The translations under genes were made by a program, and so were the position numbers. A DNA stretch of 50,378 bases from a virus (taxonomy: Duplodnaviria; Caudoviricetes), in IMG/VR virus record IMGVR_UViG_3300047550_006758, positions 1 to 50,378 of that record; one strand, written 5' to 3'. Shown one piece after another: positions 1 to 49,158 of this stretch; positions within the stretch are counted from its first letter, which is position 1, and each line of letters starts with the position of its first letter. Under the pieces are notes generated by a model that saw nothing but the letters and a program-made list of their open reading frames with translations, was not told where the DNA came from and ran no database searches.

Positions 1-1
1 C

Positions 2-1645
2 TACGATCGGTTCTTATTGTACTTAATTTTATATGGGTGTGTATTTAGGAAAATCTACTACGATCCGATTACAGGTAAGCCATTGAGCCGGTTTATCATG
101 CCTGAGGATTTTTTATTTGATAATAACTGCTCAAGTATTACCGAATCAAATCGTCTAACTCATATTAGATACCTCTCTAAAAGAGAAATCCTTTTTAACA
201 TGCAAAGCGGGATATTTTCAAAAGTTGATCTTGATTACTTAGATAGCGTAGGTAGCAGCGACGGGGAAGAATCAACAGACGACTCTAAAGCAAAACAGGT
301 AGACCCAACAAATTCCCGTTTTCCTTTTTATGAGACGCACGAATATCTGGTTTTGAATGATTTTTTTGACAATAACAATGCATCTGAGGACTATAGTATA
401 CCATTACCTTATGTTATTACCAGATGCGGCAGCAGTAATCAGATCGTATCACTTACACCAAACTGGGATGAAAACGATCCAACTAAAACAAGGATTAACT
501 GCTTTATTCATTATAATTTATTCCCCGGGTTTGATGTTTTTGGACTGGGGCTTGCTCAAATACTTGGCTCTAATTCAAAGAGCTTAACTTCCATGCAGCA
601 AATGGCGATTGACGCAGCTATTTTCCAGAATTTCCCGGGAGGGATGAAGGCTAAGGGAATAAAAACTACTAATAATGATTTGAATATATTACCTGGTCAA
701 TTCGTAACTGTTGAAACAGGGAATTTGTCCTTGCGTGATTCAATCATGCCGCTTCCTTATAATGGACCTTCGCCAGCTTTGCTTGAATATATTAACCGGA
801 TAACTGCTCAGACACAGGAACTAGCGTCCGCAACAGAGATGGGACTTACTGAAAATAATCAGAATACGCCTGTCGGTACTACGATTGCCTTGCTTGAAGT
901 ATCCAATCGGATGCAATCGGCAATAATGAGAACAGTCCATAGTAGCTTTAGCACCGAGCTACAGCTCTTTTATAAAATGTTCAATCTTAGCACGCTACCT
1001 CTAGATAAAGAGAGTTTAAAGGTCATTCCCGTATCTGATCCTTCTGTTGAATCTTCTACGCAGAGAATAATCAAGGCAGAAAGTATTTTAAAGTTAGCTA
1101 GCAGTAGCCCTGAGCTACATAACATGCGAGAAGTATATTTAAAAGTATATCAAGCCCTAGGGATTAAGGACATTGATAAGATACTCCTTCCCGAACCAGC
1201 ACCGCAAGAACAGCAGGAACAACAACCTATAGACCCTGCTCTACAGGTACAGATTGCTGATATTGAGCAGCGAAAACTTGAAGTAGAGTCCAAAGAACGG
1301 CTAGCTCACTTAAATATTGAAGCTGACGGCTATAAGACGCAAATGAGTATCGAGCTCGATAAGGAAAAACTGGAACAAGAGAAGTATTTGGCTGAATTAA
1401 AAGTTAATGAACAACAACAACTTGCCGAGCAGAAATATCAAATTGAACTTTTAAAGCTCCAGTTAAACGAGAAGGAAAAAGTAATAGATACGTTAACCAA
1501 GGAACAGGAAATGAGTACTAAGAACGAGCTTGAATTACTAAAGCTGGAATACAAAGCAAAAGAAGCTGAGTTAAAGGCACAAGTAGAAGCTCTAAGATCA
1601 GAACTATCATCCACACCAGAAAAAGAGGAGGTCATTTATGGATAG
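2..1645 (+). CDS. Phage portal protein, 5'-truncated by the window edge
   Basis: Near-identical to the C-terminal part of the 766-aa ORF that follows terL (43018-45318); coiled-coil C-terminus. Confidence 0.85.
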   Translation, partial: YDRFLLYLILYGCVFRKIYYDPITGKPLSRFIMPEDFLFDNNCSSITESNRLTHIRYLSKREILFNMQSGIFSKVDLDYLDSVGSSDGEESTDDSKAKQVDPTNSRFPFYETHEYLVLNDFFDNNNASEDYSIPLPYVITRCGSSNQIVSLTPNWDENDPTKTRINCFIHYNLFPGFDVFGLGLAQILGSNSKSLTSMQQMAIDAAIFQNFPGGMKAKGIKTTNNDLNILPGQFVTVETGNLSLRDSIMPLPYNGPSPALLEYINRITAQTQELASATEMGLTENNQNTPVGTTIALLEVSNRMQSAIMRTVHSSFSTELQLFYKMFNLSTLPLDKESLKVIPVSDPSVESSTQRIIKAESILKLASSSPELHNMREVYLKVYQALGIKDIDKILLPEPAPQEQQEQQPIDPALQVQIADIEQRKLEVESKERLAHLNIEADGYKTQMSIELDKEKLEQEKYLAELKVNEQQQLAEQKYQIELLKLQLNEKEKVIDTLTKEQEMSTKNELELLKLEYKAKEAELKAQVEALRSELSSTPEKEEVIYG

Positions 1646-1811
1646 ACAAAAAAGAGAAATAGCTTTGCACAAAATGCAAGAGAGAGCAAGAGAAAAGGAA
1701 ACAAGCTGTAATAAGTATGCTGCCGGTGGAGCGGCTAAAATTAGAAAAGACGTAGCTACCAAGAGCGGAGCGGCAGTAAAACCTAGAAATATGGGAAGGA
1801 GCAGTAAATGA
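1638..1811 (+). CDS. Small basic 57-aa phage protein (MDRQKREIALHKMQ...YAAGGAAK...GRSSK), absent from the ORF track
   Basis: GAGGAGG RBS, overlaps portal stop, ATGA overlap with next gene, conserved at 45311-45484. Confidence 0.8.
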   Translation: MDRQKREIALHKMQERAREKETSCNKYAAGGAAKIRKDVATKSGAAVKPRNMGRSSK

Positions 1812-2032
1812 TTGGAATGAACCGAAATAACATTTATAGCCGAGGTTCTTTTACCTCCGGCTTTATAGGAAGTATTGAGTCTGAAATTGATAGATACAGG
1901 CGTATTTTATGTAATCCGGCATCAATTTCTACGCTAGAGGATTACAAATATCATGTGGGATTAATTGAGGGGCTTGAGAGTTCCCTTGAACTCTTTAACA
2001 GGCACATAATAGAGGTAAATAACAATGACTAA
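1808..2032 (+). CDS. Conserved small phage protein (EDYKYHVGLIEGL motif)
   Basis: Coupled to neighbours; conserved in copy B; typical position before phage GroES. Confidence 0.75.
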   Translation: MIGMNRNNIYSRGSFTSGFIGSIESEIDRYRRILCNPASISTLEDYKYHVGLIEGLESSLELFNRHIIEVNNND

Positions 2033-2453
2033 CTGTGAAATAACCAATTACAAACCGGAAGATTTTAAAACCAAAGGAATTGATCTCCAAAGCTTTAATA
2101 AGGAGGTAATGATTGAAAGATTTAAGGAAGTATCGGTTACCGGCATTAACGTCTTAATTCTTATTTACAAACCTCCTGTTGAAGAAGTTACAAGAGGCGG
2201 AGTTATTATTCCGCAAACGGCCGTAAAGGATGACCTGGAATATAACTCAATGGTCGGGATGGTATTAAAGCTGGGCCCCGATAGTTATAAGGGCGATCAG
2301 TTTCCAAGCGGCCCTTACGTCAAAGCCGGAGACTGGGTCATATTCCCGCGTGGTTCATCATTGCAGTCAAAATATGAGGGTGAACCGATAATTATGGTAG
2401 AGGATTTTAAAATCAAGCTGCTAGTCGATAATCCATCAAAAGTATCAAGGTAA
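2025..2453 (+). CDS. Phage-encoded GroES/Cpn10-like co-chaperonin
   Basis: TRGGVIIP mobile-loop motif, GMVLKLGP and VKAGDWVIF match the Cpn10 pattern. Confidence 0.88.
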   Translation: MTNCEITNYKPEDFKTKGIDLQSFNKEVMIERFKEVSVTGINVLILIYKPPVEEVTRGGVIIPQTAVKDDLEYNSMVGMVLKLGPDSYKGDQFPSGPYVKAGDWVIFPRGSSLQSKYEGEPIIMVEDFKIKLLVDNPSKVSR

Positions 2454-2457
2454 GAAT

Positions 2458-3444
2458 ATGTTTAAAATAGATATTGAAAATACAAGCGACTTAAACGCTG
2501 CTATTCCACCTTTAAAAGAAGTAGCCGAAAATAAAGATTCAAAGAATGAAGCTAGCGAGGCAGAAGTAGAAACTAAAGACTTAGGGCAAGATACTCAAGG
2601 TGTAGATAGTAGCGATGATAAAAGCGATATTTCCGCAGATGTTTCCGAAAAAGAAGAAAAGCCTACTAAAACCTCTGCTCCTGACAAAGACAAGGAAAAA
2701 TACTGGTCTAAATTAAAAAAAGAACGTGAAGAAAAGGTAAAGCTTGCTGAGCAATTAGAGCAGTTACAGCAAGAAAAACTACAAATGGAACAAATGCTCA
2801 GCCAAGCTATTAATACCGGTTCTACCCATTATAAGAACAATGTTGCCAGCGAACTTGAAATGGCTCAGGCACGGCTTCAATTAGCACTGGAAAACGGGGA
2901 TGCTGCTGGAGTTAGCAGAGCTACTGCGGATATTTCAAAGGCGACTCATGCCTTGAATGAGGCATCTAGAATCGCCAGTTTTCCTAAAGAAGAATACTCA
3001 CAAGAGCATCTAAATCAGATTAGGGCAAGGGAATATGAAGATAGGTTATATAGCTGGCTTGAAAGTAATCCTGAAGTAGATAGAAACGCCCCTGAGTATG
3101 ATGAGAAGCTAGCGACCTCAGTATTATCCTTTATTACTAAACTGGATCGTAAATACCAAAGTGGAGGAAAAGAACATCTAATAGGCTCTGGTAGTTATTA
3201 CGGCATGATTGATGATTATATTGATAATTTAAAAATGCAGGATACTTCCTCAGCCATGATTCCTGCTAAACATTTTGGAGCAGTTCGCAGTCGCGCTCCA
3301 CGAGAATCAATACCTGATCCAAAAACAAGGGAATTAAGCGATAGAGAGAAAAAGGCAGCTCTTGCTTTTGGTATGTCTTACGAGAGGTACCGGGAGCTTC
3401 TAGATCAACGTAACAAAGAAATGAGGTCAAAAAATGGCAATTAA
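2458..3444 (+). CDS. Putative capsid scaffolding protein
   Basis: Acidic disordered N-terminus, coiled coil, C-terminal LSDREKKAALAFGMSYERY helix pair; lies between portal and capsid. Confidence 0.65.
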   Translation: MFKIDIENTSDLNAAIPPLKEVAENKDSKNEASEAEVETKDLGQDTQGVDSSDDKSDISADVSEKEEKPTKTSAPDKDKEKYWSKLKKEREEKVKLAEQLEQLQQEKLQMEQMLSQAINTGSTHYKNNVASELEMAQARLQLALENGDAAGVSRATADISKATHALNEASRIASFPKEEYSQEHLNQIRAREYEDRLYSWLESNPEVDRNAPEYDEKLATSVLSFITKLDRKYQSGGKEHLIGSGSYYGMIDDYIDNLKMQDTSSAMIPAKHFGAVRSRAPRESIPDPKTRELSDREKKAALAFGMSYERYRELLDQRNKEMRSKNGN

Positions 3445-3889
3445 ATATAAACAAGACAAAAATAATGAATTTCTATCTATTAATAGAGATATCAGGGAGC
3501 ATGAACTTGAAGGAAGTGATTTTGATTTGATGCTCACCGATTCAACCTGTCCTTTTAAAGCTTTAATCGATGAAATAATGCAACCGGGCGAGGAATATTA
3601 TTTTGCTTATAATAATCCTGAGCGCATTAACAGGTTACTGGCAAAAAAGTGGTATGTCGTATCTCCTGATAGGCTTAAAAACAAACGTACTTATAGAGGA
3701 GACTTAAGATCGGAAAATGATTGTATTACTACCGGTGATACTATTGTTTTAGCACGTGATGAACGCTACGGGCTAAAAGAGCAGCAATATTATGAACAAA
3801 AAGCCGTAAGAGTAATGCGAGATACTTTGCAAAAAGTACAGACCGATATTTACAATCCGGTCATGCCGTTTTCTGATAGAGCAATGTAG
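3434..3889 (+). CDS. Conserved phage head-module protein
   Basis: Overlaps scaffold stop; conserved in copy B. Confidence 0.7.
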   Translation: MAIKYKQDKNNEFLSINRDIREHELEGSDFDLMLTDSTCPFKALIDEIMQPGEEYYFAYNNPERINRLLAKKWYVVSPDRLKNKRTYRGDLRSENDCITTGDTIVLARDERYGLKEQQYYEQKAVRVMRDTLQKVQTDIYNPVMPFSDRAM

Positions 3890-3898
3890 AAGAATATC

Positions 3899-4990
3899 AT
3901 GTCATATTCTAAAATCATACTAGATAGCGATATTAAACTATCCTGGCCTTATCCCCGCACTGAAGGGGAGATTGCTAGTGACATTAATAATGTTATCTCT
4001 GAGAGTGATACCTATACTATTACTCTCCCACCTGCAAATACTGTAGAAACCGGTACTAGCTTGTTGTTTAATAATGTCGGGAGCTGTGATTTTACTTTGT
4101 TAGATAATGCAGGTAACCCGATTGGAACTGTACTAGTTCCTGGGGAAGTTAGGCAGATATATTTAACCGAGAATTTAACCGTTGCAGGAAGTTGGAATGT
4201 AATACCTTTTGGTGGGGGAACAAGTGGAATTATTACGTTTTCAGCGGAATCGGATAATAATTCATTAAATATTACAAATTCAACTGTTACTCCTCCGACC
4301 GGTAACATTATTTTTAAAATTGCCGATTCGTTGAATAATTTAAATAACCTGGCTACTCAGGTACAGAATGGGTTTTTAGTAATAACCGGTAATACTCCAT
4401 TAAGTTTTGTAACTCGAAAGATAGGAGGCGGCACCAATATAAATGTACAAAGCGGTGATGGGGAAACAAATGATGTAATTATTAATTTAGCCGATTCTCT
4501 AGTAGGATTATCCAGTATTAATGTAGGTAATCTCTTAATCTCGGTAAATACGATTACCACGGCAAGCGGGAGTGAGGATATTAACCTCGCTACTGTAGAT
4601 GATGGAGTAATCAATTTAAACAGTACTCAAATTGATAATATCGGTAATATGACAATACCGGGGAAGATTATAAATCCTGCTACTGCTAAGGCTTATTGTT
4701 TCTTTTACGATAATAATGCCCCGACTAATAATATCCAGATAGAGAGCAGCTTTAATATAGCCTCGGTTAGCGGAGCGCAAGGGTCATATGTTATAACGTT
4801 TGCTACTCCTTTTCCTGATGGTAATTATTTAGTATTACCGGCATTAGCACGCGGAACGGAGGTCATAGCGCCGTTTCAGGTGTTCTTTAGGTCTAGATCT
4901 GCTACTGAATTTATTATTTTTACAACCGACACACTCGGTAATTTGCTTCCCGTACTTGATGGCGTATCCGTAGTGGTATTTGGTAATTAA
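3899..4990 (+). CDS. Beta-rich virion structural / fibre-like protein
   Basis: N/T/G/I-rich; C-terminal AKAYCFF...SFNIASVS...GSYVITFATPF resembles fibre-tip domains. Confidence 0.6.
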   Translation: MSYSKIILDSDIKLSWPYPRTEGEIASDINNVISESDTYTITLPPANTVETGTSLLFNNVGSCDFTLLDNAGNPIGTVLVPGEVRQIYLTENLTVAGSWNVIPFGGGTSGIITFSAESDNNSLNITNSTVTPPTGNIIFKIADSLNNLNNLATQVQNGFLVITGNTPLSFVTRKIGGGTNINVQSGDGETNDVIINLADSLVGLSSINVGNLLISVNTITTASGSEDINLATVDDGVINLNSTQIDNIGNMTIPGKIINPATAKAYCFFYDNNAPTNNIQIESSFNIASVSGAQGSYVITFATPFPDGNYLVLPALARGTEVIAPFQVFFRSRSATEFIIFTTDTLGNLLPVLDGVSVVVFGN

Positions 4991-5034
4991 AGGCTTGAAG
5001 ATATATAAGCTAAATCTAAAAATAGTAGCACGAT

Positions 5035-5064
5035 TTGCAAAAGTAACAGTATTTTTGCTATAAT
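5035..5064 (+). promoter_or_regulatory. Sigma70-type promoter for the capsid operon
   Basis: TTGCAA-N18-TATAAT with extended -10 (TGC TATAAT); both boxes conserved at 49112-49141 while the spacer differs. Confidence 0.75.
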
Positions 5065-5079
5065 ACAATTAGGTAAAAA

Positions 5080-5282
5080 AAGTCATAACCGGGCTTAAAA
5101 AGGTTTCCGTCATTGCTAGACGTTAAAAGGCGTAGTTTGTAGCTAAATCTTTTTCTAAAAAAGCTACCTCTGTCATCGCAAGACACAAAAAGGCTAGTTT
5201 TGAAACTTATCTATAACAAAGTTTATCGTCATAACTAGACGTTAAAAGGTCTCCTGAGCTTGAATTAGCTTATCTTTTTTTA
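5080..5282 (+). ncRNA. Putative structured leader RNA: four NGTC-7nt-G(A/G)CN-xxAAAAGG hairpin units interleaved with three further stem-loops
   Basis: Units at 5080, 5108, 5171 and 5227 with covarying closing pairs; conserved at 49159-49362. Confidence 0.6.
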
Positions 5283-5331
5283 AATTTAAAATATTTACGT
5301 TTTTTAATAATTAACAATATATGAGGAAATT

Positions 5332-6117
5332 ATGTCTAACGGCATTAATAGACCTTATGGTTTGGAAGTAGTTCAGTCTCAAATAGGAAACGGCGGAACA
5401 CAAAAACTAGGTCAATATTTTATTTACGCATCCGCTGACGGCTTAACTACGCAGCCAAACAGTATTTTTCAGGGTGATCCAGTTAAATTTGTAAGTGCCC
5501 CAGGCCTTGCTGTCATGGCAGGAACAATCGCACCACAAAAGTTATCAGCTCCAACAAACGGAACACAGGTACAAGCTGTTGCAACGGCAGATGCAGACGC
5601 TTTCCTTGGGGTGTTTATAAGCTGTGCTTATACTGATGCGAGTACCGGTATACTTGTAGAGTCTGATTACTGGCCAGGCGGTAGAGCGGTAAAAGCCGGC
5701 ACACCTATTATTGCATATGTTAATGATGATCCAATGGCAGTATTTAGAGTTCAAGTATCAAGTTCTCTTGCAGCTGCAACAGGAATTACTTTTTTAGCAA
5801 CCGGGCTTGGTCTTAATGCCAATTTATCAGTGGCAGGAATAACCTTCACGGATGCTACTGCTATCGCAGGTGGTCAAAACCCACGTACTGGTAGCAACGT
5901 ATATGGTTCTGTTTACTATCTCGACGGTTCAACTTACTCAGCTACTACAGCTACCTTAGACGTAAAAATTATTGGAATTGATCCGGTAATTACCGGCAGT
6001 AGCAATCCTACAGGATTAGTACCGGGAGTAAATATGCCGTTTACTAACCTACTAGTTAAGTTTAACAAGCACATGTATGGCTCAAGCGGCGTAGCAGGTC
6101 CAACAGCCGGAGCATAG
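5332..6117 (+). CDS. Putative capsid decoration / minor capsid protein
   Basis: GAGG RBS; A/G/T-rich; N-terminal xxPYGL motif; directly upstream of major capsid gene. Confidence 0.65.
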   Translation: MSNGINRPYGLEVVQSQIGNGGTQKLGQYFIYASADGLTTQPNSIFQGDPVKFVSAPGLAVMAGTIAPQKLSAPTNGTQVQAVATADADAFLGVFISCAYTDASTGILVESDYWPGGRAVKAGTPIIAYVNDDPMAVFRVQVSSSLAAATGITFLATGLGLNANLSVAGITFTDATAIAGGQNPRTGSNVYGSVYYLDGSTYSATTATLDVKIIGIDPVITGSSNPTGLVPGVNMPFTNLLVKFNKHMYGSSGVAGPTAGA

Positions 6118-6129
6118 GAGTATAAGGTT

Positions 6130-6255
6130 ATGTCCATAATAACAAGCGGTAATATGCCGTCTCTTTTAAAGGAAGGGTTATATCTACCGAAAGAGAAGAA
6201 GAAAACACCTGTTAAGGCAGGATCAATAAAGAAAACTAAAAATAAAGGTAATTAA
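6130..6255 (+). CDS. 41-aa peptide paralogous to the major capsid N-terminus, with Lys-rich tail
   Basis: MSIITSGNMPSLLKEGLYLPKEKKKTPVKAGSIKKTKNKGN; AGGAG/AAGG upstream; start conserved at 50240. Confidence 0.7.
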   Translation: MSIITSGNMPSLLKEGLYLPKEKKKTPVKAGSIKKTKNKGN

Positions 6256-6257
6256 TT

Positions 6258-7187
6258 ATGTCTATTATAACAACCGGTGATATTCCAAGTCTGCTTTGGC
6301 CGGGTCTTTATGAGGTAAAATCTCAGTATGATCGGTTTAAAGGGGAATATACCAAAATCTATGAACAGGCTAATTCTGTCAAACATACTGAGAGGATGGT
6401 TGATATTAGAGGCACTGGCTATGCACTTGAGAAAACCCAAGGCGCTCCTATTAAAATGGATAGCATGGCTGAGAGGTTTATTTATGAATTTGTCCACCGG
6501 GAATTTGCCCTCGGTTTTCAGATTACCAATATTGCCATGGAAGATGATCTTTATGCCGATCAGTTCTTTAATGGGACTAAATCGCTTACTACTTCCTATG
6601 AACAAACCAGAGAAGTAGTAGCAATGAATCCTTTTAACCAGGCGTTTAACGTAGCAGCAACGCAAAGTAACGGACAACCTCTCTGCTCCGGTTCTCAGCC
6701 TTATGACGGCGGTGTTTATTCTAACCGCGTCGGGGCATATAACGGCGTTAATGTTAATGTCGACTTTAGTGAAGCAGGCGTTGAACAGGCAGTAATACTA
6801 GCGGGTAAAATGAAAGATCAAGCAGGATTGCTAATTAATGCTCAAATTGAGAGATTGTTACTGCCGCAAGACTTAATGTTCTCAGGTTGCAGGTTACTTG
6901 AATCTGTATTTAGAACAGGAACGGCTAATAACGATATAAACGCACTTTATAACATGAAAGCTATTCCGCAAGGTTATGAAGTAAGCCATTTCTTAACAAG
7001 TCCTAGCAACTGGTTTGGATTAACTAACGTCAAGGGAACTCGTAAGCATTTCGTAAGACGACCTCTTAAAGTTAACGTAACAACTGATCCTGTAACTGAA
7101 ACCATGTCAGTACTTGCATCCGGTCGTTATTCTTTTGGTATGTTTACGCCTCGTGGTGTAATTGGCGCAACGGGATCAACAGCTTAA
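6258..7187 (+). CDS. Major capsid protein (Mu gpT-like, HK97 fold)
   Basis: SLLWPGL N-arm, HREFALGFQIT, LLLPQDL, GTANNDINA, HFLTSPSNWF and RYSFG motifs; 309 aa. Confidence 0.88.
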   Translation: MSIITTGDIPSLLWPGLYEVKSQYDRFKGEYTKIYEQANSVKHTERMVDIRGTGYALEKTQGAPIKMDSMAERFIYEFVHREFALGFQITNIAMEDDLYADQFFNGTKSLTTSYEQTREVVAMNPFNQAFNVAATQSNGQPLCSGSQPYDGGVYSNRVGAYNGVNVNVDFSEAGVEQAVILAGKMKDQAGLLINAQIERLLLPQDLMFSGCRLLESVFRTGTANNDINALYNMKAIPQGYEVSHFLTSPSNWFGLTNVKGTRKHFVRRPLKVNVTTDPVTETMSVLASGRYSFGMFTPRGVIGATGSTA

Positions 7188-26547: not shown

Positions 26548-27420
26548 CTATGCGGTTTGTGAATAATTATGTTGCTTATTTATATACTCTATACAGGCCA
26601 GTTGCCTCTCTTCCCCTAAATCGGCAATACTACGGGCTTCTGCCTTACTGCACCATTTTTCTATGATAGATCTTGGTACATTATGCAATTTAATAAGTTC
26701 TATTAATTCAGCCAAAGTTTCGCTCGGCTCTAGGTCTTTTACCTCTTCCTCCTGATGAGATAAAACAGAGTCAAGTTTGCTACTGATACTTTGAGCTTTT
26801 GGGGTTATATTTTTAACTTCCATCTCAAGATCATTAAAATTCTTCCCCTCCATTTCCTCAGCTGTCGGATGCTGACTTACTATCTCAGGAAAAGCTTTGC
26901 GCAGTGCTTGTGCTTCAGCACATTTGGCTAGCTGTCCATATGGTCTTTTTCGCCACATAGTATTAGGTGTTAGTTCATCTTTTTTAGCAGCATAATTTTC
27001 TAACCAGTATTCTTTAGCGGTAAATTCAACGATAGTATTATTTACTATCTTTTTAACTGTTACCTTACACCATTTTGGATAAGTAATCTCAGTGCCCCCT
27101 AAATTACATGTAACATCTTCACCAAATTCAGGCTCACTTACACCCGCATATTGATTACTACGTGCCGCCTGTATTCTATATAAGCCAACACCTGCCATAA
27201 CCACATCCTTGTACTCATATTTTCCTGTAAGAGCATTTTTTACACTCATCGGGACAATATGAACCGGCTTTTGCATAGGGTCTAATTTTGCTGCCTTGCA
27301 ATAATCAAGAACCAGTTTTATACTTTCATCTTTTGCACCGGTATATAAGCTGTTTTTTAATGCTGACCATATATGCTGGTCAACTTCATTAGTGGTATTT
27401 ATTGCTGCTATATTACTCAT
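26548..27420 (-). CDS. bet: Phage single-strand annealing recombinase Bet
   Basis: CKAAKLDPM.K.VHIVP, YRIQA.RS..YAG, W.K.P..QLAKCAEAQALRKAFP. Confidence 0.9.
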   Translation of the reverse strand: MSNIAAINTTNEVDQHIWSALKNSLYTGAKDESIKLVLDYCKAAKLDPMQKPVHIVPMSVKNALTGKYEYKDVVMAGVGLYRIQAARSNQYAGVSEPEFGEDVTCNLGGTEITYPKWCKVTVKKIVNNTIVEFTAKEYWLENYAAKKDELTPNTMWRKRPYGQLAKCAEAQALRKAFPEIVSQHPTAEEMEGKNFNDLEMEVKNITPKAQSISSKLDSVLSHQEEEVKDLEPSETLAELIELIKLHNVPRSIIEKWCSKAEARSIADLGEERQLACIEYINKQHNYSQTA

Positions 27421-27436
27421 GGTTTACCTTCCTTGT

Positions 27437-27658
27437 TTAAATATCTTTATATTTTATTATTAACTGATAGCGTTTTTTTAATCTTTCTAGAAAATCAGGT
27501 TCAACTCCTTTATTTCCTCTTTCTACCTCAGTAATCCTGGATGGATAAGTATGCATATATTCCGCAATTTGAGGTATTGTTATACCTGCTTCTTTCCGCA
27601 TTCTCCTTAATTCTTCTCCCTCTTCCTTTGTCAGTACCGGATATTTTCTTATCATCAT
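27437..27658 (-). CDS. XRE-family HTH protein
   Basis: LRRMRKEAGIT..QIA......SRITEVERG. Confidence 0.85.
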   Translation of the reverse strand: MMIRKYPVLTKEEGEELRRMRKEAGITIPQIAEYMHTYPSRITEVERGNKGVEPDFLERLKKRYQLIIKYKDI

Positions 27659-28563
27659 TTAATTAAAAATACTCTTGATTGCTTAGTATAACTACTATAC
27701 TTCAAATACAGGTCTTTTGCTTCATCTTTAAACCTTTTTAAGTCAAAAAATGACCTTGGAGTGCTATTCTTCCATGTAGCTATCACCTTACCGTTATTAT
27801 CAATTAGCACGTCATAATCTCGCATAAATTCCTGTATATCGGTCTTTAATTTTTCAATAGTACTTTGTATCCTACTTTCTTCTTCTTTTGCTCCTTTAAG
27901 CTCTTGGAGTTTTTCTATGATATTACTTTCTGCTACTATTTCGTGATAATTACTTTGCGGGAATAAGTTAAATGTATCCCTAGTACTCACACATTTAGGC
28001 GGTATCCTTTTTTCTATATGGTTATCCCAGAAATTACAGGCTATCTTAATTAGCTTGTCTTCTAGCTCCTTATTTCGTTTATAAGTATAAATTCTAAAAT
28101 CCTGTCCTCCAATAAGAACAGCTATATCAACCTTTGGTACAGCGCAGATAGCAGCATAATAAGCTACTTGTACAAGATAACTCTCAGGAATCTGATCTGT
28201 TCCCTCTTCTCCCCATTCTTTGCCTCGAGTAAAACCCGCTGTCTTACATTCCAAAACATATTCTTTATCGCCAACCCACCGATCAATATTAGCTGCTAAA
28301 AACTTATATTCAGGGTGATAGATTGTGTCTAGTTCTATTTCTATCGTTTGACCAGTAACTTCTGCATACTCCTTAGCTATAGTATCTTCTAAAAGAGTAC
28401 CCCACCTCATCGCCGGGCTACTTTCGCAAGCTATATCATCTCTGGTTTTATCTAAATATACGTCAAGAGCAGTCCTGTAAGGATTAAGTCCTGCTATAGC
28501 ACCCAAATCACTGCCACCGAGATAATTCTTACGCATCAAAAGCCATTCTTGTTTATTTTCCAT
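27655..28563 (-). CDS. YqaJ/lambda-exonuclease family protein
   Basis: WL..RK.YLGGSD, WG..LE, ANID, LECKT and Q..YY motifs. Confidence 0.92.
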   Translation of the reverse strand: MENKQEWLLMRKNYLGGSDLGAIAGLNPYRTALDVYLDKTRDDIACESSPAMRWGTLLEDTIAKEYAEVTGQTIEIELDTIYHPEYKFLAANIDRWVGDKEYVLECKTAGFTRGKEWGEEGTDQIPESYLVQVAYYAAICAVPKVDIAVLIGGQDFRIYTYKRNKELEDKLIKIACNFWDNHIEKRIPPKCVSTRDTFNLFPQSNYHEIVAESNIIEKLQELKGAKEEESRIQSTIEKLKTDIQEFMRDYDVLIDNNGKVIATWKNSTPRSFFDLKRFKDEAKDLYLKYSSYTKQSRVFLIK

Positions 28564-37394: not shown

Positions 37395-38021
37395 ATGGCA
37401 CATATAATATCTATTACTCAAACAAAAGGAGGAGCTACTAAAACAACAAGTAGTATAAACATACTAGGTGCATTATTAGAAAAAGGTAAAAAAGCAATAT
37501 TATGTGATATGGATAAAGATAAACCAGATGCAATATTCTGGGCTGATTTAGGTACTACTTTAAATAATTTTGTAATTCCTTTGTACGAAGACAACCCGAA
37601 GCCTAAATTAGAACTTTTAAGTAAAGAGTATGACTTTATTATTATAGATACTCCTCCCAATATGCAGGCAGCTGCACTTAAAGCTACAATACTCTCAGAT
37701 TTTATTATTATACCCTGTTCGGTTTCAGAATTAGATAAAAACGCTTTAAATCAAGCCGCTTCAGCCGCTATGCTAGCAAATAAGCCTTATTCTTTCTTAG
37801 CTTCTAGAACAACAAAGCATACTAATTCCACTAGAGATTTATTAGAACAGATAGCAGAAACAGGCTTATATTTTAAGACTAATATTACTAATAGTGTTGA
37901 TATGATTGAATGTCAAAAATACGGTCAATGGGTAGGAACTTATAAACCAAATTGTAAGAATCATATACAGTACCAATCTTTAATCGAAGAGTTAATTACA
38001 AAATTAGATACTATAAGATAG
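37395..38021 (+). CDS. parA: ParA-family partition ATPase (short, plasmid type Ib)
   Basis: KGGATKTT deviant Walker A, IIIDTPP Walker B; no N-terminal HTH. Confidence 0.92.
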   Translation: MAHIISITQTKGGATKTTSSINILGALLEKGKKAILCDMDKDKPDAIFWADLGTTLNNFVIPLYEDNPKPKLELLSKEYDFIIIDTPPNMQAAALKATILSDFIIIPCSVSELDKNALNQAASAAMLANKPYSFLASRTTKHTNSTRDLLEQIAETGLYFKTNITNSVDMIECQKYGQWVGTYKPNCKNHIQYQSLIEELITKLDTIR

Positions 38022-39950: not shown

Positions 39951-41231
39951 TTAAAGAGATAGCTTAACACCAACTAGAGCTACAGTGCCTTTTACCTTTC
40001 TTGCCTTTAAATTAGGATAGAACTCAGGTTTGCCTTTAAGGGTATAAGCATGGATTTCAGCATAAGGCTTTAATCCTGGTGCAAGTATGTGACTTACGGC
40101 TAGTTTTACTGAGTTTACTTTATTTTTAAACTGCTCTGAGGCAAAATACGATAATGAAGTTGTCGTAGCCTTATTATAGGTATAGGCAATACCGGCATTA
40201 TAGTATTGAGACTTACGGTTACCTTTATGCAATTCTTTTGTAGTTAAACTTTTACCGAAAGAGCTATAGCAGGCATTATACTTAAAATCACCTATTTTTA
40301 ATTCGCCGCCAATATTATAAGATTTTAAGTCACTTAATTTATATGCAAGTGGATTCTGATCGTCTTTATTAGCAAATTTTTTGATTTTACCTACTGATTT
40401 GCCGTATTCACCGGTTAGAGCCAGCTTTAATTCTGCTTCTTCCGTTAGTTTCTGCTCTAATACTATCCCACTAGTAATAGCATCTTTAACTGATCTATCA
40501 ATTTCAAACCTATCTATAGTAGGCTCTCCTACGGCATATTTTTTTATTCCGTCTGATTTATCTGATGGTTTCTCTACGCCGGTATTAGCAGAATCAGGAG
40601 TATAGGATATACCAAGCCTGATTTTACTAGTATCGGTTAAATCAAACTTAGGAGTATAATAATTTATTGTTCTTGGCGGTTCACTACTATAAGTGGCAGA
40701 ATCCATACTTGCAATTATTTGGTCACCAAGGAAAGACCCTTCAGAAGTCAAAAATGAGGGTACAGCTTTTTTGCTTTGTTTTAGGTAATCTATCCCAGTT
40801 TTGATGTATTTTGTCGGTATGGATCCATCACTTATCATCATATTCTTAGCAGCAGGAATAGGTGAACCGGCTTCAATTCGACCAAACTCATGTTCTAAAA
40901 ATACGTATGAGCCGTTATAGTCCTTGTTAACTTTTCTCTTAACTGTCGGTACTAATATAATCTTAGCGCCATAAGTAATGTCATCAGTGGTATTTGATAT
41001 GGCGGCAAATAGAGCCGTATCGTTATAAAAAGCAAAACCTCTTTTATTAGCTGATATATTCTTCTCTGAGCCTTTTAGTTTACCCTGATTGCTAAATCCA
41101 CTTTCAAAGGCAGCATATGCTCCAAGCTTTATATTTAAATCCGATACTACAGGCAATGGATCGCTGGCTAATGCCGTGCTACTTGCAAGTAAGCTTGCTA
41201 ATAAAACAACTGATGCTTTTTTTATTACCAT
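39951..41231 (-). CDS. Outer-membrane porin
   Basis: Signal peptide (…STALA), FGRIEAG, INYYTP, GISYTP, terminal amphipathic strand VGVKLSL. Confidence 0.85.
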   Translation of the reverse strand: MVIKKASVVLLASLLASSTALASDPLPVVSDLNIKLGAYAAFESGFSNQGKLKGSEKNISANKRGFAFYNDTALFAAISNTTDDITYGAKIILVPTVKRKVNKDYNGSYVFLEHEFGRIEAGSPIPAAKNMMISDGSIPTKYIKTGIDYLKQSKKAVPSFLTSEGSFLGDQIIASMDSATYSSEPPRTINYYTPKFDLTDTSKIRLGISYTPDSANTGVEKPSDKSDGIKKYAVGEPTIDRFEIDRSVKDAITSGIVLEQKLTEEAELKLALTGEYGKSVGKIKKFANKDDQNPLAYKLSDLKSYNIGGELKIGDFKYNACYSSFGKSLTTKELHKGNRKSQYYNAGIAYTYNKATTTSLSYFASEQFKNKVNSVKLAVSHILAPGLKPYAEIHAYTLKGKPEFYPNLKARKVKGTVALVGVKLSL

Positions 41232-41380: not shown

Positions 41381-43018
41381 ATGCACATGAGGCGCAAGTC
41401 CGATCATATAAAATTACCGCAAGTAATCCCGGCTTTAATGTCTACATTCGAGCAGAGTTACTTGGATGAATTATTTAAAGTACAAGAACAATTAGCAAAT
41501 AGCGAGGGTTCTTTATATGAATTCTTTAAATCGAGCTGGCCTTATATTGAAGGTAACATGCCATATATTGATAGCTGGCATATTAAGGCTATAGCTGAGC
41601 ATTTAGAGGCGGTTTATGTGCGCCAAATAAAGAAGCTTATTATTAATGTTCCGCCCCGCACGGGCAAGACCAATTTAATATCTGTAGCTTTTCCTGCCTG
41701 GGTATGGATACATAACCCTAGTGAGCGGTTCTTAACTGTATCCTGCGTGAATTCCTTAAGCCTTGAGCATGCACAGAAAAACAGAGCTTTACTCGAAAGT
41801 AGCTGGTATCAGGATAATTGGGGTTATAGATTCCCACTTCTTAAAGACCAGAACGTTAAGAGCTTTTTCCAGAATACCAAAACAGGATATAGGCAATCAA
41901 CAAGCGTAGTATCTAAAACTGTAGGTAAAGGCGGTTCAATTATTATCATTGATGACCCTAACGACCCAGGCGACTTATCTGAAGTAAAACGTGAGAACGT
42001 AATTAACTGGTGGACGCAAAGAATGTCTACCCGTTCAAATAACCCAGCTAATGACTGCCGAATAGTTGTTCAGCAAAGAACGCATGAGAACGATTTAACC
42101 GGTTATATCAGAAAGAATGACAGCGATGGTGATTGGGTAGAGTTGGTGCTACCCTTAGAGTTTGAAGAAAAGCGCAAGTGTATTACAGTTCCTCTTGGCA
42201 TAGATCAGATTATTTGGGAAGACCCCAGAAACAAAGAAGGAGAGGTACTAAGCGACTTACGCTTTGGCGAGAAGCAAGTAAATGAGTTAAAAAAGTTACT
42301 CGGCTCTTATGGATATGCTGGGCAGTGTCAGCAAAGACCATCTCCAATTGGCGGCGGAATAATCAAGAAAAAATGGTTTAAATTCTGGACTAGCCCGATT
42401 AAGCCTAAATTTGATTACATATTGCAAAGCTGGGACACGGCAATTTCCGATGAGCCTACAGCTGCGTATTCTGCTTGCAGCACTTGGGGAGTTTGGGGTG
42501 AAAAATCCGAGGATGAGCTATTTAGGATGATGCTACTTTCCGTTTGGCGTGATCGAGTAGGATATCCTGATCTTCGAGCTAGAGCCCAGCGCTTAGCGAA
42601 AGATTATAAAGATACAGGCGAGCATAAAAATCCAATGCCGGCTCAAAGAACTGTTGATATTTGCCTTATTGAGGCAAAGGCAACGGGTGATCCGTTAATT
42701 CGGGACTTAAGACTCGCTGGTATTCCGGCTATAGGCTACATGCCAAAAGGCGATAAGGGAGCAAGAGTCCAGAGAGCAGCGCCGTTTATTGAGTGCGGGC
42801 TTATTTATTTGCAGGCCGAAGAGAAAAACCCTGAAAGGCTAACCGTTACGGCCGAGGAGTTTTTAGAAACAGTGATAACTTTTCCAAACGGGGAATCAAA
42901 AGACCTGGTTGATTCGATGACACAGGCAATTTTGTACCTTAGAGACTTTGATACTTTAATTCATACAAGTGATGTTAAGGAAGATGAGATCGTTACTAAA
43001 CCTAGAAAATTATACTAA
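41381..43018 (+). CDS. terL: Terminase large subunit
   Basis: INVPPRTGKT Walker A, IIIIDDP Walker B, QQR.HE.DL, QQRP, QSWDTA, DLVDSMTQA nuclease motifs. Confidence 0.95.
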   Translation: MHMRRKSDHIKLPQVIPALMSTFEQSYLDELFKVQEQLANSEGSLYEFFKSSWPYIEGNMPYIDSWHIKAIAEHLEAVYVRQIKKLIINVPPRTGKTNLISVAFPAWVWIHNPSERFLTVSCVNSLSLEHAQKNRALLESSWYQDNWGYRFPLLKDQNVKSFFQNTKTGYRQSTSVVSKTVGKGGSIIIIDDPNDPGDLSEVKRENVINWWTQRMSTRSNNPANDCRIVVQQRTHENDLTGYIRKNDSDGDWVELVLPLEFEEKRKCITVPLGIDQIIWEDPRNKEGEVLSDLRFGEKQVNELKKLLGSYGYAGQCQQRPSPIGGGIIKKKWFKFWTSPIKPKFDYILQSWDTAISDEPTAAYSACSTWGVWGEKSEDELFRMMLLSVWRDRVGYPDLRARAQRLAKDYKDTGEHKNPMPAQRTVDICLIEAKATGDPLIRDLRLAGIPAIGYMPKGDKGARVQRAAPFIECGLIYLQAEEKNPERLTVTAEEFLETVITFPNGESKDLVDSMTQAILYLRDFDTLIHTSDVKEDEIVTKPRKLY

Positions 43019-45318
43019 TGGCAACAAGAAGGAAGCAAAAAGGAAAGACTAATCTTGATTTATCGGTGCTAGAGAATTTAGAGCCTGAATCTCTAAATCT
43101 TACTCAAGAAATGCCGATAGAAGAACAAATCCTGCTACAGGAAACAGGTAGTTTAGATGAACCGGTTTTACCGGAAGAAGAAGCACTTATTTCCCTAGAA
43201 GATCAAATCTTATCACGTATAGATAACGAAGCGGAAGAATTAGCACCTTCCCCTACTACCTTTAATAGTAATTTTGCAGATGATATACCGGAAAGCGTCA
43301 GAGATAAAATCGCTGCCTACTTAGAAGAGGTAACGGTAAAAGATACAAAAAACCGTGCGCCCTGGCTTGATATAATTGAAAAAGCTAAAACCTTACTTGG
43401 CTTTAAAATTGAGGAAATACAAGAGCCGGGTAATGTAAATACGCGTAAATCTAATGCAATCGGTAATGCCGCACAAGTTAAAACTTACGATACTACCTTC
43501 TCAAGCAGTGTCTTGAGATTATGGGCAACGCTTCGCTCCGAGTTACTCCCCTCAACCGGTCCTGTAGGATTTAGGACTGATGTTAGTGTGAGCGAAGATT
43601 ACGAATTAAAAGGTGAGATGGTCAGGGATGCTTTAAATGAGTACTTAACAGTAGAAGATAAGGGCTTTTATCCAGACTACGATCGGTTCTTGTTATATTT
43701 GATTTTATATGGGTGTGTATTTAGGAAAATCTACTACGACCCGATTACAGGTAAGCCATTGAGCCGGTTTATCATGCCAGAGGACTTTTTATTTGATAAT
43801 AACTGCTCAAGTATTACCGAATCAAATCGCCTGACTCATATTAGATACCTCTCTAAAAGAGAAATACTTTTTAACATGCAGAGCGGGATATTCTCAAAAG
43901 TTGATCTTGATTACCTAGATAGCGTAGGAAGCAGCGATGGGGAAGAAGCAACAGACGACTCTAAAGCAAAACAAGTAGACCCCACAAATTCCCGTTTTCC
44001 TTTTTATGAGACGCACGAATATCTGGTTTTGAATGATTTTTTTGACAATAACAATGCATCTGAAGACTATAGTATCCCACTACCTTACGTTATTACCAGA
44101 TGCGGCAACAGTAATCAGATCGTATCACTTACGCCAAACTGGGATGAAAATGATCCAACCAAAACAAGGATTAACTGCTTTATTCATTATAATTTATTTC
44201 CTGGGTTTGATGTTTTTGGACTGGGGCTTGCTCAAATACTTGGCTCTAATTCAAAGAGCTTAACTTCAATGCAGCAAATGGCGATTGACGCGGCTATTTT
44301 CCAGAATTTCCCGGGAGGGATGAAGGCTAAGGGAATAAAAACTACTAATAATGATTTGAATATATTACCCGGTCAATTCGTAACTGTTGAAACAGGGAAT
44401 TTGTCGCTTCGTGATTCAATCATGCCACTTCCTTATAATGGACCATCGCCAGCTTTACTTGAATATATTAACCGGATAACTGCCCAGACACAGGAATTAG
44501 CGTCCGCAACAGAGATGGGACTCACTGAAAATAATCAGAATACGCCTGTCGGTACTACGATTGCGTTGCTTGAAGTATCCAATCGGATGCAATCGGCAAT
44601 AATGAGAACAGTCCATAGTAGCTTTAGCCAGGAGTTGCAGCTCTTTTATAAAATGTTCAACCTGCCATCACTACCTCTAGACAAAGAGAGTTTAAAAGTA
44701 ATCCCTGTATCTGATCCATCGGTTGAATCTTCTACGCAGAGAATAATCAAGGCAGAGAGTATTTTAAAGTTAGCTAGCAGTAGCCCTGAGCTACATAACA
44801 TGCGAGAAGTATATTTAAAAGTATATCAAGCCCTAGGGATTAAGGACATTGATAAGATATTGTTACCTGAAGCAGCACCGGAGCAGCAACAGGAGCAACC
44901 AATAGACCCAGCCCTACAGGTTCAGATTGCTGACATTGAGCAACGAAAACTTGAAGTAGAGTCAAAAGAACGGCTAGCTCATTTAAATATTGAAGCTGAC
45001 GGCTACAAAACTCAGATGAATATTGAACTTGATAAGGAAAAACTAGAACAAGAGAAGTATTTAGCTGAGTTAAAAGTATCAGAACAACAACAACTTGCTG
45101 AGCAGAAATATCAAATTGAACTTTTAAAACTCCAGTTAAACGAGAAGGAAAAAGTAATAGATATACTAACCAAAGAGCAGGAAATAAACAGTAAAAACGA
45201 GCTTGAATTACTACGGCTTGAGTATAAAGCAAAAGAAGCTGAGTTAAAGGCACAAGTAGAAGCTCTAAGATCAGAAATTTCATCCATACCAAAAAAAGAG
45301 GAGGTAATTTATGGATAG
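43018..45318 (+). CDS. Phage portal protein (full length)
   Basis: Directly follows terL; 766 aa; GCVFRKIYYD, PVGTTIALLE, coiled-coil tail. Confidence 0.88.
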   Translation: MATRRKQKGKTNLDLSVLENLEPESLNLTQEMPIEEQILLQETGSLDEPVLPEEEALISLEDQILSRIDNEAEELAPSPTTFNSNFADDIPESVRDKIAAYLEEVTVKDTKNRAPWLDIIEKAKTLLGFKIEEIQEPGNVNTRKSNAIGNAAQVKTYDTTFSSSVLRLWATLRSELLPSTGPVGFRTDVSVSEDYELKGEMVRDALNEYLTVEDKGFYPDYDRFLLYLILYGCVFRKIYYDPITGKPLSRFIMPEDFLFDNNCSSITESNRLTHIRYLSKREILFNMQSGIFSKVDLDYLDSVGSSDGEEATDDSKAKQVDPTNSRFPFYETHEYLVLNDFFDNNNASEDYSIPLPYVITRCGNSNQIVSLTPNWDENDPTKTRINCFIHYNLFPGFDVFGLGLAQILGSNSKSLTSMQQMAIDAAIFQNFPGGMKAKGIKTTNNDLNILPGQFVTVETGNLSLRDSIMPLPYNGPSPALLEYINRITAQTQELASATEMGLTENNQNTPVGTTIALLEVSNRMQSAIMRTVHSSFSQELQLFYKMFNLPSLPLDKESLKVIPVSDPSVESSTQRIIKAESILKLASSSPELHNMREVYLKVYQALGIKDIDKILLPEAAPEQQQEQPIDPALQVQIADIEQRKLEVESKERLAHLNIEADGYKTQMNIELDKEKLEQEKYLAELKVSEQQQLAEQKYQIELLKLQLNEKEKVIDILTKEQEINSKNELELLRLEYKAKEAELKAQVEALRSEISSIPKKEEVIYG

Positions 45319-45484
45319 GCAAAAAAGAGAGTTAGCTACTCGCCAAATGCAGGAAAGGGTTAAAGAACGAAGCGAAAGCTGCAATAAATATGCTGCCGGT
45401 GGCGCTGCTAAGATTAGAAAAGATGTAGCTACAAAAAGTGGAGCGGCAGTGAAACCTAGAAATATGGGGAGGAGCAGTAAATGA
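45311..45484 (+). CDS. 57-aa basic protein, copy B
   Basis: Same length and frame as 1638-1811. Confidence 0.8.
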   Translation: MDRQKRELATRQMQERVKERSESCNKYAAGGAAKIRKDVATKSGAAVKPRNMGRSSK

Positions 45485-45705
45485 TTGGCGTGAACCGAAA
45501 TAACATTTATAGCCGAGGTTCTTTTACTTCGGGTTTTATAGGAAATATTGAGGCTGAGATTGATAGATACAGGCGTATTTTAAGTAATCCGGCATCAATT
45601 TCTACGCTAGAGGATTACAAATATCACGTGGGATTAATTGAAGGACTTGAGAGCTCCCTTGAACTCTTTAACAGGCACATAATAGAGGTAAATAACAATG
45701 ATTAA
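45481..45705 (+). CDS. Conserved small phage protein, copy B
   Basis: Paralog of 1808-2032. Confidence 0.75.
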   Translation: MIGVNRNNIYSRGSFTSGFIGNIEAEIDRYRRILSNPASISTLEDYKYHVGLIEGLESSLELFNRHIIEVNNND

Positions 45706-46126: not shown

Positions 46127-46130
46127 GAAT

Positions 46131-47562: not shown

Positions 47563-47571
47563 AAGAATATC

Positions 47572-48663: not shown

Positions 48664-48689
48664 AGGGGATAAAACTTGATAGAAAGAAT

Positions 48690-49088: not shown

Positions 49089-49111
49089 ACAACCCTAAAT
49101 AGTAGTACAAT

Positions 49112-49141
49112 TTGCAAAAGTGGTAACCTTTTTGCTATAAT
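49112..49141 (+). promoter_or_regulatory. Capsid operon promoter, copy B
   Basis: TTGCAA-N18-TATAAT. Confidence 0.75.
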
Positions 49142-49158
49142 ATAATTAGGTAGAAAAA

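Follow-up and report, generated by a model that had tools for sequence, protein, structure and literature searches.

The DNA analyzed here is the whole IMG/VR virus record IMGVR_UViG_3300047550_006758 (Duplodnaviria; Caudoviricetes), a linear sequence of 50,378 bases (CheckV, 97%), which we refer to as the window. At positions 5080 to 5282 it contains a leader with four copies of a small hairpin followed by an A-rich tail, located between a putative promoter and a gene of the virion module. The original prediction, made from the letters of the sequence alone, had described this leader as a candidate cis-acting RNA. When the leader was compared with its relatives, the cis-acting RNA interpretation was supported at the sequence level by covariation, strand-specific wobble pairs, orientation, and conservation.

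Upstream of the leader, an open reading frame (ORF) with a weak tail-fibre match ends at position 4990. It is followed on the plus strand by a predicted sigma-70-type promoter at 5035 to 5064, which consists of TTGCAA, an 18-nucleotide (nt) spacer, and TATAAT, the second hexamer being preceded by TG (extended -10). The promoter is near consensus (10 of 12 positions plus the TG) and is conserved in relatives along with the upstream sequence TAGTAGTACGA; its function and its timing, including the "late" of the original prediction, are putative. The four repeated units lie on the same strand between 5081 and 5249, exactly where they had been predicted, and each can be written as n-GTC, a 7-nt loop, GAC-n', and NN(T/A)AAAAGG. 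Unit 1 (5081 to 5103, plus strand) reads a-GTC, loop ATAACCG, GGC-t, and tail tAAAAAGG, with a U-G wobble in its stem and a folding energy of -1.0 kcal/mol. Unit 2 (5108 to 5130, plus strand) has c-GTC, loop ATTGCTA, GAC-g, and tail ttAAAAGG (44.2 bits with model R1; -2.5 kcal/mol), and unit 3 (5171 to 5193, plus strand) has t-GTC, loop ATCGCAA, GAC-a, and tail caAAAAGG (35.8 bits; -1.7 kcal/mol). Unit 4 (5227 to 5249, plus strand), with c-GTC, loop ATAACTA, GAC-g, and tail ttAAAAGG (43.3 bits), is the most conserved and is invariant in all 46 aligned leaders. The outer pairs (a-t, c-g, t-a, and c-g) and the start of the A-rich tail 1 to 2 nt past them were also read correctly in the original prediction. 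The units are spaced 27, 63, and 56 bp apart, which leaves gaps of 5, 41, and 34 nt between them.

The second stems that had been noticed after units 2 to 4 and the terminal T run are all present. Stem A (5139 to 5167, plus strand) follows unit 2 and pairs GTAGCT with AGCTAC around a U-rich loop (-5.3 kcal/mol). Stem B (AAACTT/AAGTTT, 5203 to 5224, plus strand) follows unit 3; at -1.6 kcal/mol it is weak and no better than shuffled sequences, and it varies little in relatives. Stem C follows unit 4 and has the look of a weak terminator (5256 to 5281, plus strand): GAGCT pairs with AGCTT (5256 to 5271), and the stem is followed by ATC and a run of seven T's (5275 to 5281), so that U7 begins 3 nt past the stem. 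The folding energy of stem C is -5.7 kcal/mol alone and -7.1 kcal/mol when the unit 4 tail is paired to AUCUUUU, as it can be in window-type leaders. About 40 AT-rich bases separate the T7 run from GAGG, the Shine-Dalgarno sequence that, together with the ATG of the downstream gene, occupies 5323 to 5334 (plus strand). The distance from the end of the array to this ATG, at 5332, is 83 nt.

A further copy of promoter and leader (copy B) is located at 49113 to 49361 on the plus strand, with units at 49161 to 49182, 49188 to 49209, 49251 to 49272, and 49308 to 49329. The ends of the record repeat each other: the first 6.7 kb (1 to 6700) recur at 43.7 to 50.4 kb (43677 to 50378) with 83 to 94% identity. 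This is most simply explained by an assembly that wrapped round a genome of about 43.7 kb into a co-occurring mosaic variant, rather than by a paralogue. A second leader copy had been reported at 49154 to 49370 in the original prediction, and it is indeed there, but it would be the same locus met again at the opposite end of one record. The two leaders are 91 to 95% identical, with the differences in loops and linkers, while the proteins encoded behind them are 50% identical; as predicted, the U-G pair of unit 1 (GTC..GGC in the window) is replaced by GTC..GAC in copy B, and the same replacement of GGC by GAC is found in many relatives. Copy B also differs by an insertion of approximately 406 nt, which adds an ORF of 132 codons (48690 to 49088).

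We scanned the window for the unit pattern GTCATNNCNNGACNNNAAAGG, allowing up to two mismatches, with 100 shuffled sequences and the reversed pattern as controls. Nine matches were found: four in the leader, four in copy B (49161 to 49328), and one on the minus strand at 27734 to 27754. The shuffled sequences gave a mean of 0.20 matches and a maximum of two, and the reversed pattern gave none. A covariance model of the unit, run with filters off, likewise scored high only at the leader sites (35.8 to 49.1 bits). The minus-strand site (27733 to 27754), which reads GTCATTTTTTGAC..AAAAAGG, reached 19.7 bits and has no conserved loop C. It sits in the 3' part of a RecE-like gene, with a small helix-turn-helix gene about 75 nt downstream. 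We treated it as probably a chance match.

The distribution of the unit was examined in IMG/VR with the 261-amino-acid (aa) protein of the downstream gene as the query, which gave 77 loci; 201 relatives were counted in an alignment-based search, and 80 of them were retained. Five loci were too short to score. Of 68 related loci whose upstream DNA reaches 300 nt or more, 67 carry two to four units (31 with three, 27 with four, and 9 with two). The sole exception, L087, has no units, and its match to the 261-aa protein is partial with 33% identity. A tighter pattern found 90 IMG/VR stretches, mostly contigs already counted. Neither flanking gene is nearly as conserved as the leader. Compared with the window, the identity of the leader is 96.3% in L078, 93.7% in L085, and 91.4% in copy B, whereas the identity of the gene DNA is 63.1%, 59.8%, and 63.9%, respectively, and homologues of the 261-aa protein fall to 48 to 50% protein identity. 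Five loci (L104, L126, L137, L140, and L098) have a second cassette with the same promoter, units, and terminal hairpin 5.5 to 6.3 kb away, before an unrelated, repeat-rich, fibre-like gene of 764 aa that has no homologue in the window. In more distant leaders (L101/L121/L124/L151/L089, L131, L133, and L283 and L103 as far homologues), almost nothing is shared with the window leader beyond the units and the presence of adjoining hairpins. The position of stem A is taken in divergent leaders by TACAGTTT/AAACTGTA, and that of stem C in other leaders by AAAGAT/ATCTTT or GAAGC-gaaa-GCTTC. All instances are on the gene-sense strand, and each is preceded by a sigma-70-type promoter. Between the last unit and the ATG there are about 94 to 190 nt, and the spacing to the promoter is variable too. 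The number of units differs through unit-to-unit deletions, for example, in L032/L156. Fifteen of the 22 unit positions are fixed, including in paralogous copies and in phages whose neighbour proteins are only 48 to 50% identical.

In contigs of RNA library run X1, similarity to the leader ends or begins at positions 5020, 5070, and 5140, beyond which they continue into unlike sequence. This suggests that promoter and leader modules are exchanged independently of each other by recombination among co-occurring phages.

Base pairing was analyzed in 83 distinct units, taken from clusters with at least two units plus L283 and L103, after two instances with four mismatches had been dropped. The outer pair is CG in 33 units, AU in 30, UA in 14, UG in 3, GU in 1, and otherwise in 2. 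For the second pair the counts are 79 GC, 3 AU, and 1 GU; for the third, 73 UA, 9 UG, and 1 other; the fourth is CG in all 83. The covariation score of the 4-bp stem was 0.320, compared with 0.132 ± 0.014 for shuffled data (0 of 500 shuffles reached it) and at most 0.115 when the partner was slid. Two properties of the sample weigh against taking these figures at face value: the collecting pattern fixes GTC and GAC, which means that the three inner pairs are partly paired by construction, and many of the sequences are close relatives, with the result that the counts are not independent events. The outer pair is clean evidence because, unlike the inner pairs, it was not selected by the collecting pattern. 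The core GTCATAACTAGAC is closed by a-t, t-a, c-g, t-g, or g-t in different units, and the ATC..GAT units of L138, L050, and L051 represent double compensatory changes. Departures from Watson-Crick pairing in the four stem pairs amount to 14 wobble cells and three mismatches; all wobbles are G-U on the plus strand and would be A-C if read on the other strand. A fifth base pair can be dismissed, as 59 of the 83 units are unpaired there, and an alternative hairpin, GAC-N8-GUC with the tail in its loop, was 75.3% paired versus 75.6% in shuffles, 251 of 500 of which reached its covariation score.

The hairpins between the units show the same behavior. Stem A has a compensatory replacement of C-G by U-A, altered on both sides (GTAGTT/AACTAC), and intermediates with G-U pairs (GTAGTT/AGCTAC, GTAGCT/AGTTAC, and GTAGCT/AGCTAT). 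Divergent leaders carry beside their units the hairpins GAAGT-gaga-ACTTC and GAAGC-gaaa-GCTTC, which are one compensatory pair apart and have GNRA loops on the plus strand. We aligned 46 of the 47 distinct leaders with three or four units, omitting L131 as too divergent, with seven hairpins specified. In this alignment, 99.1% of the cells are paired versus 25 to 44% when slid, and five pairs change on both sides, a number reached in 0 of 500 shuffles. The candidate of the original prediction was thus borne out as a conserved element on the gene-sense strand, with covariation in both the 83 units and the 46 leaders. The sequence evidence favours base pairing in the plus-strand transcript over a double-stranded operator, because the outer pair covaries, the ATC..GAT units are compensatory, and the wobbles are G-U on the plus strand. 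An RNA hairpin also fits better than a hairpin in single-stranded DNA, because every instance is on the sense strand and downstream of a sigma-70-type promoter.

Other structures proposed for the leader did not hold. RNAalifold suggested a long-range fold of CUAGUU after unit 3 with the unit 4 loop; its covariation term was -0.27 and it is absent from L131, L133, and L101. A closing helix between the A run and the U run in the minimum-energy fold appears by eye to be confined to window-type leaders. A leader peptide, in the form of a TTG-started frame of 12 codons after unit 3, is improbable: the frame is broken in relatives by 1-nt insertions or deletions in the stem B loop. The units also showed no unusual complementarity to the 16S rRNA of a cassette-carrying Rickettsiales assembly, with longest complementary runs of 8 to 10 nt and shuffled means of 9.1 to 10.7.

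We give roughly even odds (a probability of about 0.5) to the reading that the leader is a cis-acting RNA with several sites for a conserved trans-acting factor that controls expression after initiation. Host RNA polymerase would start at the near-consensus promoter at 5035 to 5064, and the transcript would carry two to four copies of a 22- to 24-nt RNA motif, in which GUC/GAC and the covarying closing pair form a 4-bp stem, AUNRCUA is the 7-nt loop, and NN(U/A)AAAAGG follows as a single-stranded tail. Small hairpins would lie between the copies, and a weak hairpin with a U run would close the leader about 50 nt before the ribosome-binding site. We read the units as sites of partner recognition because the hairpins, at -1.0 to -2.5 kcal/mol, are only marginally stable and too weak to act by stability, and because 15 of 22 positions are fixed. 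They would serve as several sites for one factor, supplied by either host or phage, that acts on the leader during or after its synthesis, and this factor would set the share of the strongly initiated transcript that becomes expressed virion protein. Direct occlusion of the promoter or of the ribosome-binding site is unlikely because the distances to both vary, which leaves control of elongation or read-through, processing or stability, and titration of a factor. The version that we favour is nut- or put-like: the leader would control elongation or read-through, and the tail of the last unit would be the A-rich flank of the terminal hairpin. A near-consensus promoter would need control after initiation, and the unit 4 tail can extend stem C into an L-shaped hairpin before the remaining U's (-7.1 kcal/mol); both points led us to this version. 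It is further favoured by a close precedent from another phage-derived element of Alphaproteobacteria (bioRxiv 10.1101/2024.11.20.624540).

Several observations weigh against this reading. The terminal hairpin is weak (-5.7 to -7.1 kcal/mol) and was not called in a simple terminator scan, and there is no hairpin with a U run in the most divergent leaders (L101 type and L133), because of which termination control cannot be the universal function of the units. The leader as a whole showed no extra folding stability over shuffled sequences (z = -0.35 on the plus strand and -0.94 on the minus strand). The variable distances give no positive clue to the mechanism. No antiterminator of the N or Q type, RNA polymerase, or known RNA-binding family was found among the 48 ORFs, which were compared with PHROGs and/or Pfam, not every ORF with both. 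For the N type, this negative result concerns proteins that are small and poorly covered by profiles, and for the Q family it concerns the scanned ORFs and profile libraries only, with no structure-based search. Finally, transcription itself would have to be read from RNA libraries for which contigs only were available, with runs X1, X4, X5, and X6 aligned to the region, no DNA run compared, and DNA carry-over possible. In favour of the reading, these contigs join parts of the leader to the gene, and one X1 contig spans 5020 to 5570. Others start at 5131 (X6), 5251 (X5), and 5254 (X4), which is 1, 2, and 5 nt past a unit tail; the gaps upstream of 5251 in X4 and X5 and of 5131 in X6 are no proof of absence, and depth cannot be ranked from contigs. 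Antitermination, as named in the original prediction, thus stays plausible, but the weak terminal hairpin, the divergent leaders that have none with a U run, and the lack of an N- or Q-like match in the 48 ORFs stand against it. The proposal of capsid autoregulation is unlikely, because the downstream protein diverges freely to 48 to 50% identity while the units stay constant, and because identical units precede the unrelated 764-aa fibre-like gene. The third proposal, a processed repeat RNA, draws only a weak hint from the starts of the RNA contigs.

Processing or stability would be served equally well by the pairing and strand evidence. Here, an endoribonuclease or a protective factor would recognize the hairpin plus AAAAGG, and the mRNA would start 3' of a unit or be stabilized. 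The units keep no fixed distance to the promoter, the terminator-like hairpin, or the ribosome-binding site, which suits a position-independent signal in a leader, and the contig starts at 5131 (the first base past the unit 2 tail), 5251, and 5254, with no loose end there, give it a weak hint. These are contigs, however, and not reads, with no DNA comparison; assembly graphs can break at module junctions when strains are mixed, X4 and X5 may share one sampling campaign, and the X1 contig crosses the entire leader from 5020 to 5570. We know of no nuclease with specificity for the unit hairpin plus tail; the YafQ-type toxin encoded by the phage is presumably a ribosome-dependent mRNA nuclease. 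On balance, we regard processing as rather unlikely. It is considerably harder to see the leader as a separate small RNA, a transcript of about 210 nt from promoter to U run that would act as a decoy titrating an RNA-binding protein or nuclease in the manner of CsrB/RsmZ, with read-through being secondary. A strong promoter, a series of similar hairpins that present a conserved single-stranded motif, and a U7 run behind the last hairpin would all be expected of such an RNA, as would a leader far more conserved than the flanking genes, and several RNA libraries hold approximately the leader's share of the query's sampled words (contigs were aligned for X1, X4, X5, and X6). Yet the terminal hairpin and U run are missing from divergent leaders, RNA contigs join leader and gene, and the motif has no GGA, the hallmark of Csr/Rsm sites, all of which makes this reading very improbable.

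Two further explanations place the signal in the DNA. The original prediction had offered a GTC-N7-GAC array as its alternative, which could mean operators, iterons, or centromere-like sites for a dimeric protein such as a roadblock repressor or a ParA partner. The 3+3 inverted repeat with half-sites one helical turn apart, present in two to four direct copies beside an AT-rich stretch, would suit this, and the phage encodes helix-turn-helix proteins and a ParA-like ATPase. A double-strand reading, however, does not explain a closing pair that covaries without being conserved, the compensatory ATC..GAT units, or the 14 of 17 departures that are G-U on the plus strand. Moreover, the tail is conserved but asymmetric, the units are all oriented with the gene, their spacings of 27, 63, and 56 bp are out of helical phase, and the array travels with a structural gene rather than with parA. 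The operator alternative is disfavoured accordingly, and we consider it highly unlikely. Still less credence goes to tandem promoters outside the sigma-70 type, with each 22-nt unit initiating at its GG like the approximately 23-nt promoters of single-subunit phage polymerases. The asymmetric unit has about the size of a T7-type promoter and ends in GG, and contigs start 1 to 5 nt past the GG in three runs, but no RNA polymerase gene was found and the large ORFs have no polymerase match in PHROGs or Pfam. The units occur only in leaders, four per genome copy, and before no other operons, and covariation in the stem is unexpected for a double-stranded promoter. Equally far-fetched, in our view, is the absence of any regulatory role, with the units as duplicated remnants of a hairpin plus Shine-Dalgarno sequence and the leader kept as a homology patch for shuffling by RecE/RecT. 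The leader does lie at mosaic junctions between very different flanking genes, with RNA contig junctions at 5020, 5070, and 5140, its unit number varies by unit-to-unit deletion (L032/L156), and in three unrelated contigs a similar hairpin and tail overlap a real Shine-Dalgarno sequence before a PF06810 scaffold gene. Against this, compensatory and wobble-only changes indicate selection for pairing, the units survive in leaders that otherwise share no sequence (L101, L283, and L103), and a simple homology patch would not be expected to keep 15 of 22 positions constant in all paralogous copies.

Going beyond the reading as a leader RNA with sites for a conserved factor, we propose tentatively, and at clearly less than even odds, that the unit represents a novel class of cis-acting RNA signals in phages. 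Several copies of a short, sequence-specific hairpin with an A-rich tail would bring a conserved factor to the transcript, or to the polymerase, of virion genes with high expression, for processive antitermination or programmed 5' processing. The signal would operate in a widespread family of phages or plasmid-prophages of obligate intracellular Rickettsiales and is possibly related to the uncharacterised GP20-type leaders of other phages.

We compared the leader with known RNA families. No Rfam 15 family reached its gathering score in the window or in L148, L164, L091, L283, and L103, in agreement with the original prediction of a new element, and Rfam searches of six relatives gave no match at an E value of ≤1. 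Permissive Rfam scans returned sub-threshold hits only, to GP20-b and, on the minus strand, to three snoRNA families. The GP20-b model (RF03003) scored 16.0 bits at 5081 to 5134 (units 1 and 2; E = 0.47 to 0.68), well below its gathering score of 36.2 bits; none of the five genomes or records searched had GP20-b over the cutoff, nor did any relative or Rickettsiales genome. According to PMC10690425, GP20-b and GP20-a are candidate cis-regulatory motifs upstream of phage GP20 genes. The term GP20 is absent from the main text of Weinberg et al. 2017, whose supplement, or that of PMC10690425, may describe GP20-b or the unit motif. The likeness lies in a phage 5' leader motif before a head-assembly gene and in the consensus blocks GUCA, GGC-n-UAAAAG, and UAAAA..GCGUA, which are shared with units 1 and 2. 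However, the hairpin of the GP20-b model itself is not kept in the window leader, and the gene downstream is not PF06810, a family that was found only in L148, L164, and L091. A pattern of hairpin plus real Shine-Dalgarno sequence was found in eight IMG/VR stretches, of which three form a PF06810 group and the rest look like chance. In these three (L148, 4016 to 4048; L164, 1058 to 1090; and L091, minus strand), a sigma-70-like promoter is followed by a hairpin ending in GTTAAAAA and then by GTCATCCCCAGAC and the Shine-Dalgarno sequence AAAAGGAG. The three unrelated contigs have no Rfam match, to GP20-b or otherwise, and carry the element directly before the PF06810 ("GP20") scaffold gene. As a lead, the module of hairpin and A-rich tail may be older and wider than the family of the window phage.

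The nut sites (boxA plus boxB, with N protein) and the put RNAs of phage HK022 combine short hairpins with a conserved single strand, lie early in the operon, and act in cis on the elongating polymerase. The leader resembles them in its short hairpins, sequence-specific loops, and conserved single-stranded element. It differs from nut in having two to four copies instead of one and a 4-bp stem with a 7-nt loop instead of 5 bp with a GNRA-like pentaloop; its conserved single strand is 3' of the hairpin, and no strong terminator follows. A boxA-like pattern gave 66 matches versus 83.6 expected, and within the leader only matches with three mismatches. CsrB and RsmZ likewise present a short conserved motif in many similar small hairpins and have a terminator hairpin at their end, but the loops of the leader are AUNRCUA, its tails are AAAAGG followed by U or C without GGA, and its RNA is joined to the coding region. 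The PeSL cassettes of T4-type phages share with the leader the repetition of promoter plus hairpin at mosaic junctions before different genes; they are single stem-loops at early promoters, in contrast to a sequence-specific hairpin array before virion genes. CRISPR arrays have near-identical repeats of about 23 to 37 nt and variable spacers of about 30 to 40 nt. A CRISPR mini-array or repeat mimic was rejected for the leader, in which the units are 22 to 24 nt long and not identical, the gaps are conserved structured modules, and no Rfam CRISPR-DR match was found. Q-type factors (lambda pR'-tR' and BrrG) load via a DNA site and a sigma-dependent promoter pause, and repeated RNA hairpins are no part of that mechanism. 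In the Bartonella gene transfer agent (bioRxiv 10.1101/2024.11.20.624540), the constitutive promoter P_bgtA-K is followed by a long leader and, upstream of the head genes, by an L-shaped terminator (-6 kcal/mol) that is overcome by the Q-like protein BrrG. The window phage would share with this element a strong promoter, a long untranslated leader, a weak L-shaped terminator (-5.7 to -7.1 versus -6 kcal/mol), the position before head genes, and an association with Alphaproteobacteria.

The leader is a good candidate for a new structured-RNA motif of unusual multi-copy design in a phage family linked to intracellular bacteria. If confirmed, it would represent a new structured-RNA family below every curated Rfam threshold, and its clean covariation allows a direct test by stem-breaking and compensatory mutants. 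A cassette that stays 91 to 96% identical at a mosaic junction amid diverging genes bears on the shuffling of phage modules, and the Rickettsiales link suggests that intracellular symbionts harbour a family of phages or plasmid-prophages that is largely undescribed and whose gene regulation is very little understood. The faint resemblance to GP20-type motifs, if real, would give a first handle on motifs that are catalogued but unexplained.

The gene behind the leader (5332 to 6117, plus strand) encodes the 261-aa protein of the virion gene module. The protein matches no Pfam family, has no sequence match in the Protein Data Bank (PDB) and no PDB fold match at an E value of ≤0.001, and its only PHROG match (E = 7e-05) is to a PHROG of unknown function; the label "capsid gene" in the original prediction was therefore not borne out. 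The AlphaFold2 model consists entirely of beta strands with a pLDDT of 55. With tblastn against GenBank phages, five weak matches were obtained (34% identity, 33 to 64% coverage), all to hypothetical proteins, and a lead from the ESM Atlas to phage cement proteins had scores of 0.81 to 0.84, below the meaningful level. The versions encoded in the window and in copy B are 50% identical. A terminator-like hairpin with a T run (6146 to 6169) directly follows the gene, before the next ORF at 6258, because of which the 261-codon gene may form a largely separate, strongly expressed transcription unit.

When positions 4000 to 7000 were compared with GenBank phages by blastn, no match was found. The exact unit pattern occurs in five stretches of the GTDB species genomes. 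Candidatus Megaera venefica strain Sr 2-6 and two metagenome-assembled genomes of Rickettsiales account for three of them (L293, L295, and L296), each with the entire cassette and the homologous gene; single, chance-like matches in Streptomyces and Rhizobium make up the remainder. On one Rickettsiales scaffold of 62.7 kb, the leader is almost identical to that of the window. Because the cassette and the homologous gene are found in three Rickettsiales assemblies, the host is probably a member of this order of obligate intracellular bacteria.

The remaining gene content was assigned by library matches. The large terminase subunit is encoded at 41381 to 43018 and the portal protein at 43018 to 45318 and again at 17 to 1645. 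A Cpn10 (GroES)-like protein (2025 to 2453) lies in the head module between the portal gene and the gene of a 328-aa protein. The latter has only non-significant sequence matches, to dynein heavy chain, and is likely a coiled-coil scaffold protein. RecE- and RecT-like proteins are encoded at 26548 to 28563, and the genome also encodes a DNA methyltransferase, a PD-(D/E)XK transposase-like protein, and helix-turn-helix proteins. A small ParA-like ATPase (37395 to 38021, plus strand) and a YafQ toxin/RelB antitoxin pair (18244 to 18775, minus strand) together suggest a plasmid-prophage lifestyle. A Gram-negative porin gene (Porin_4; 39951 to 41231, minus strand) is also present and may be a host-derived accessory gene.

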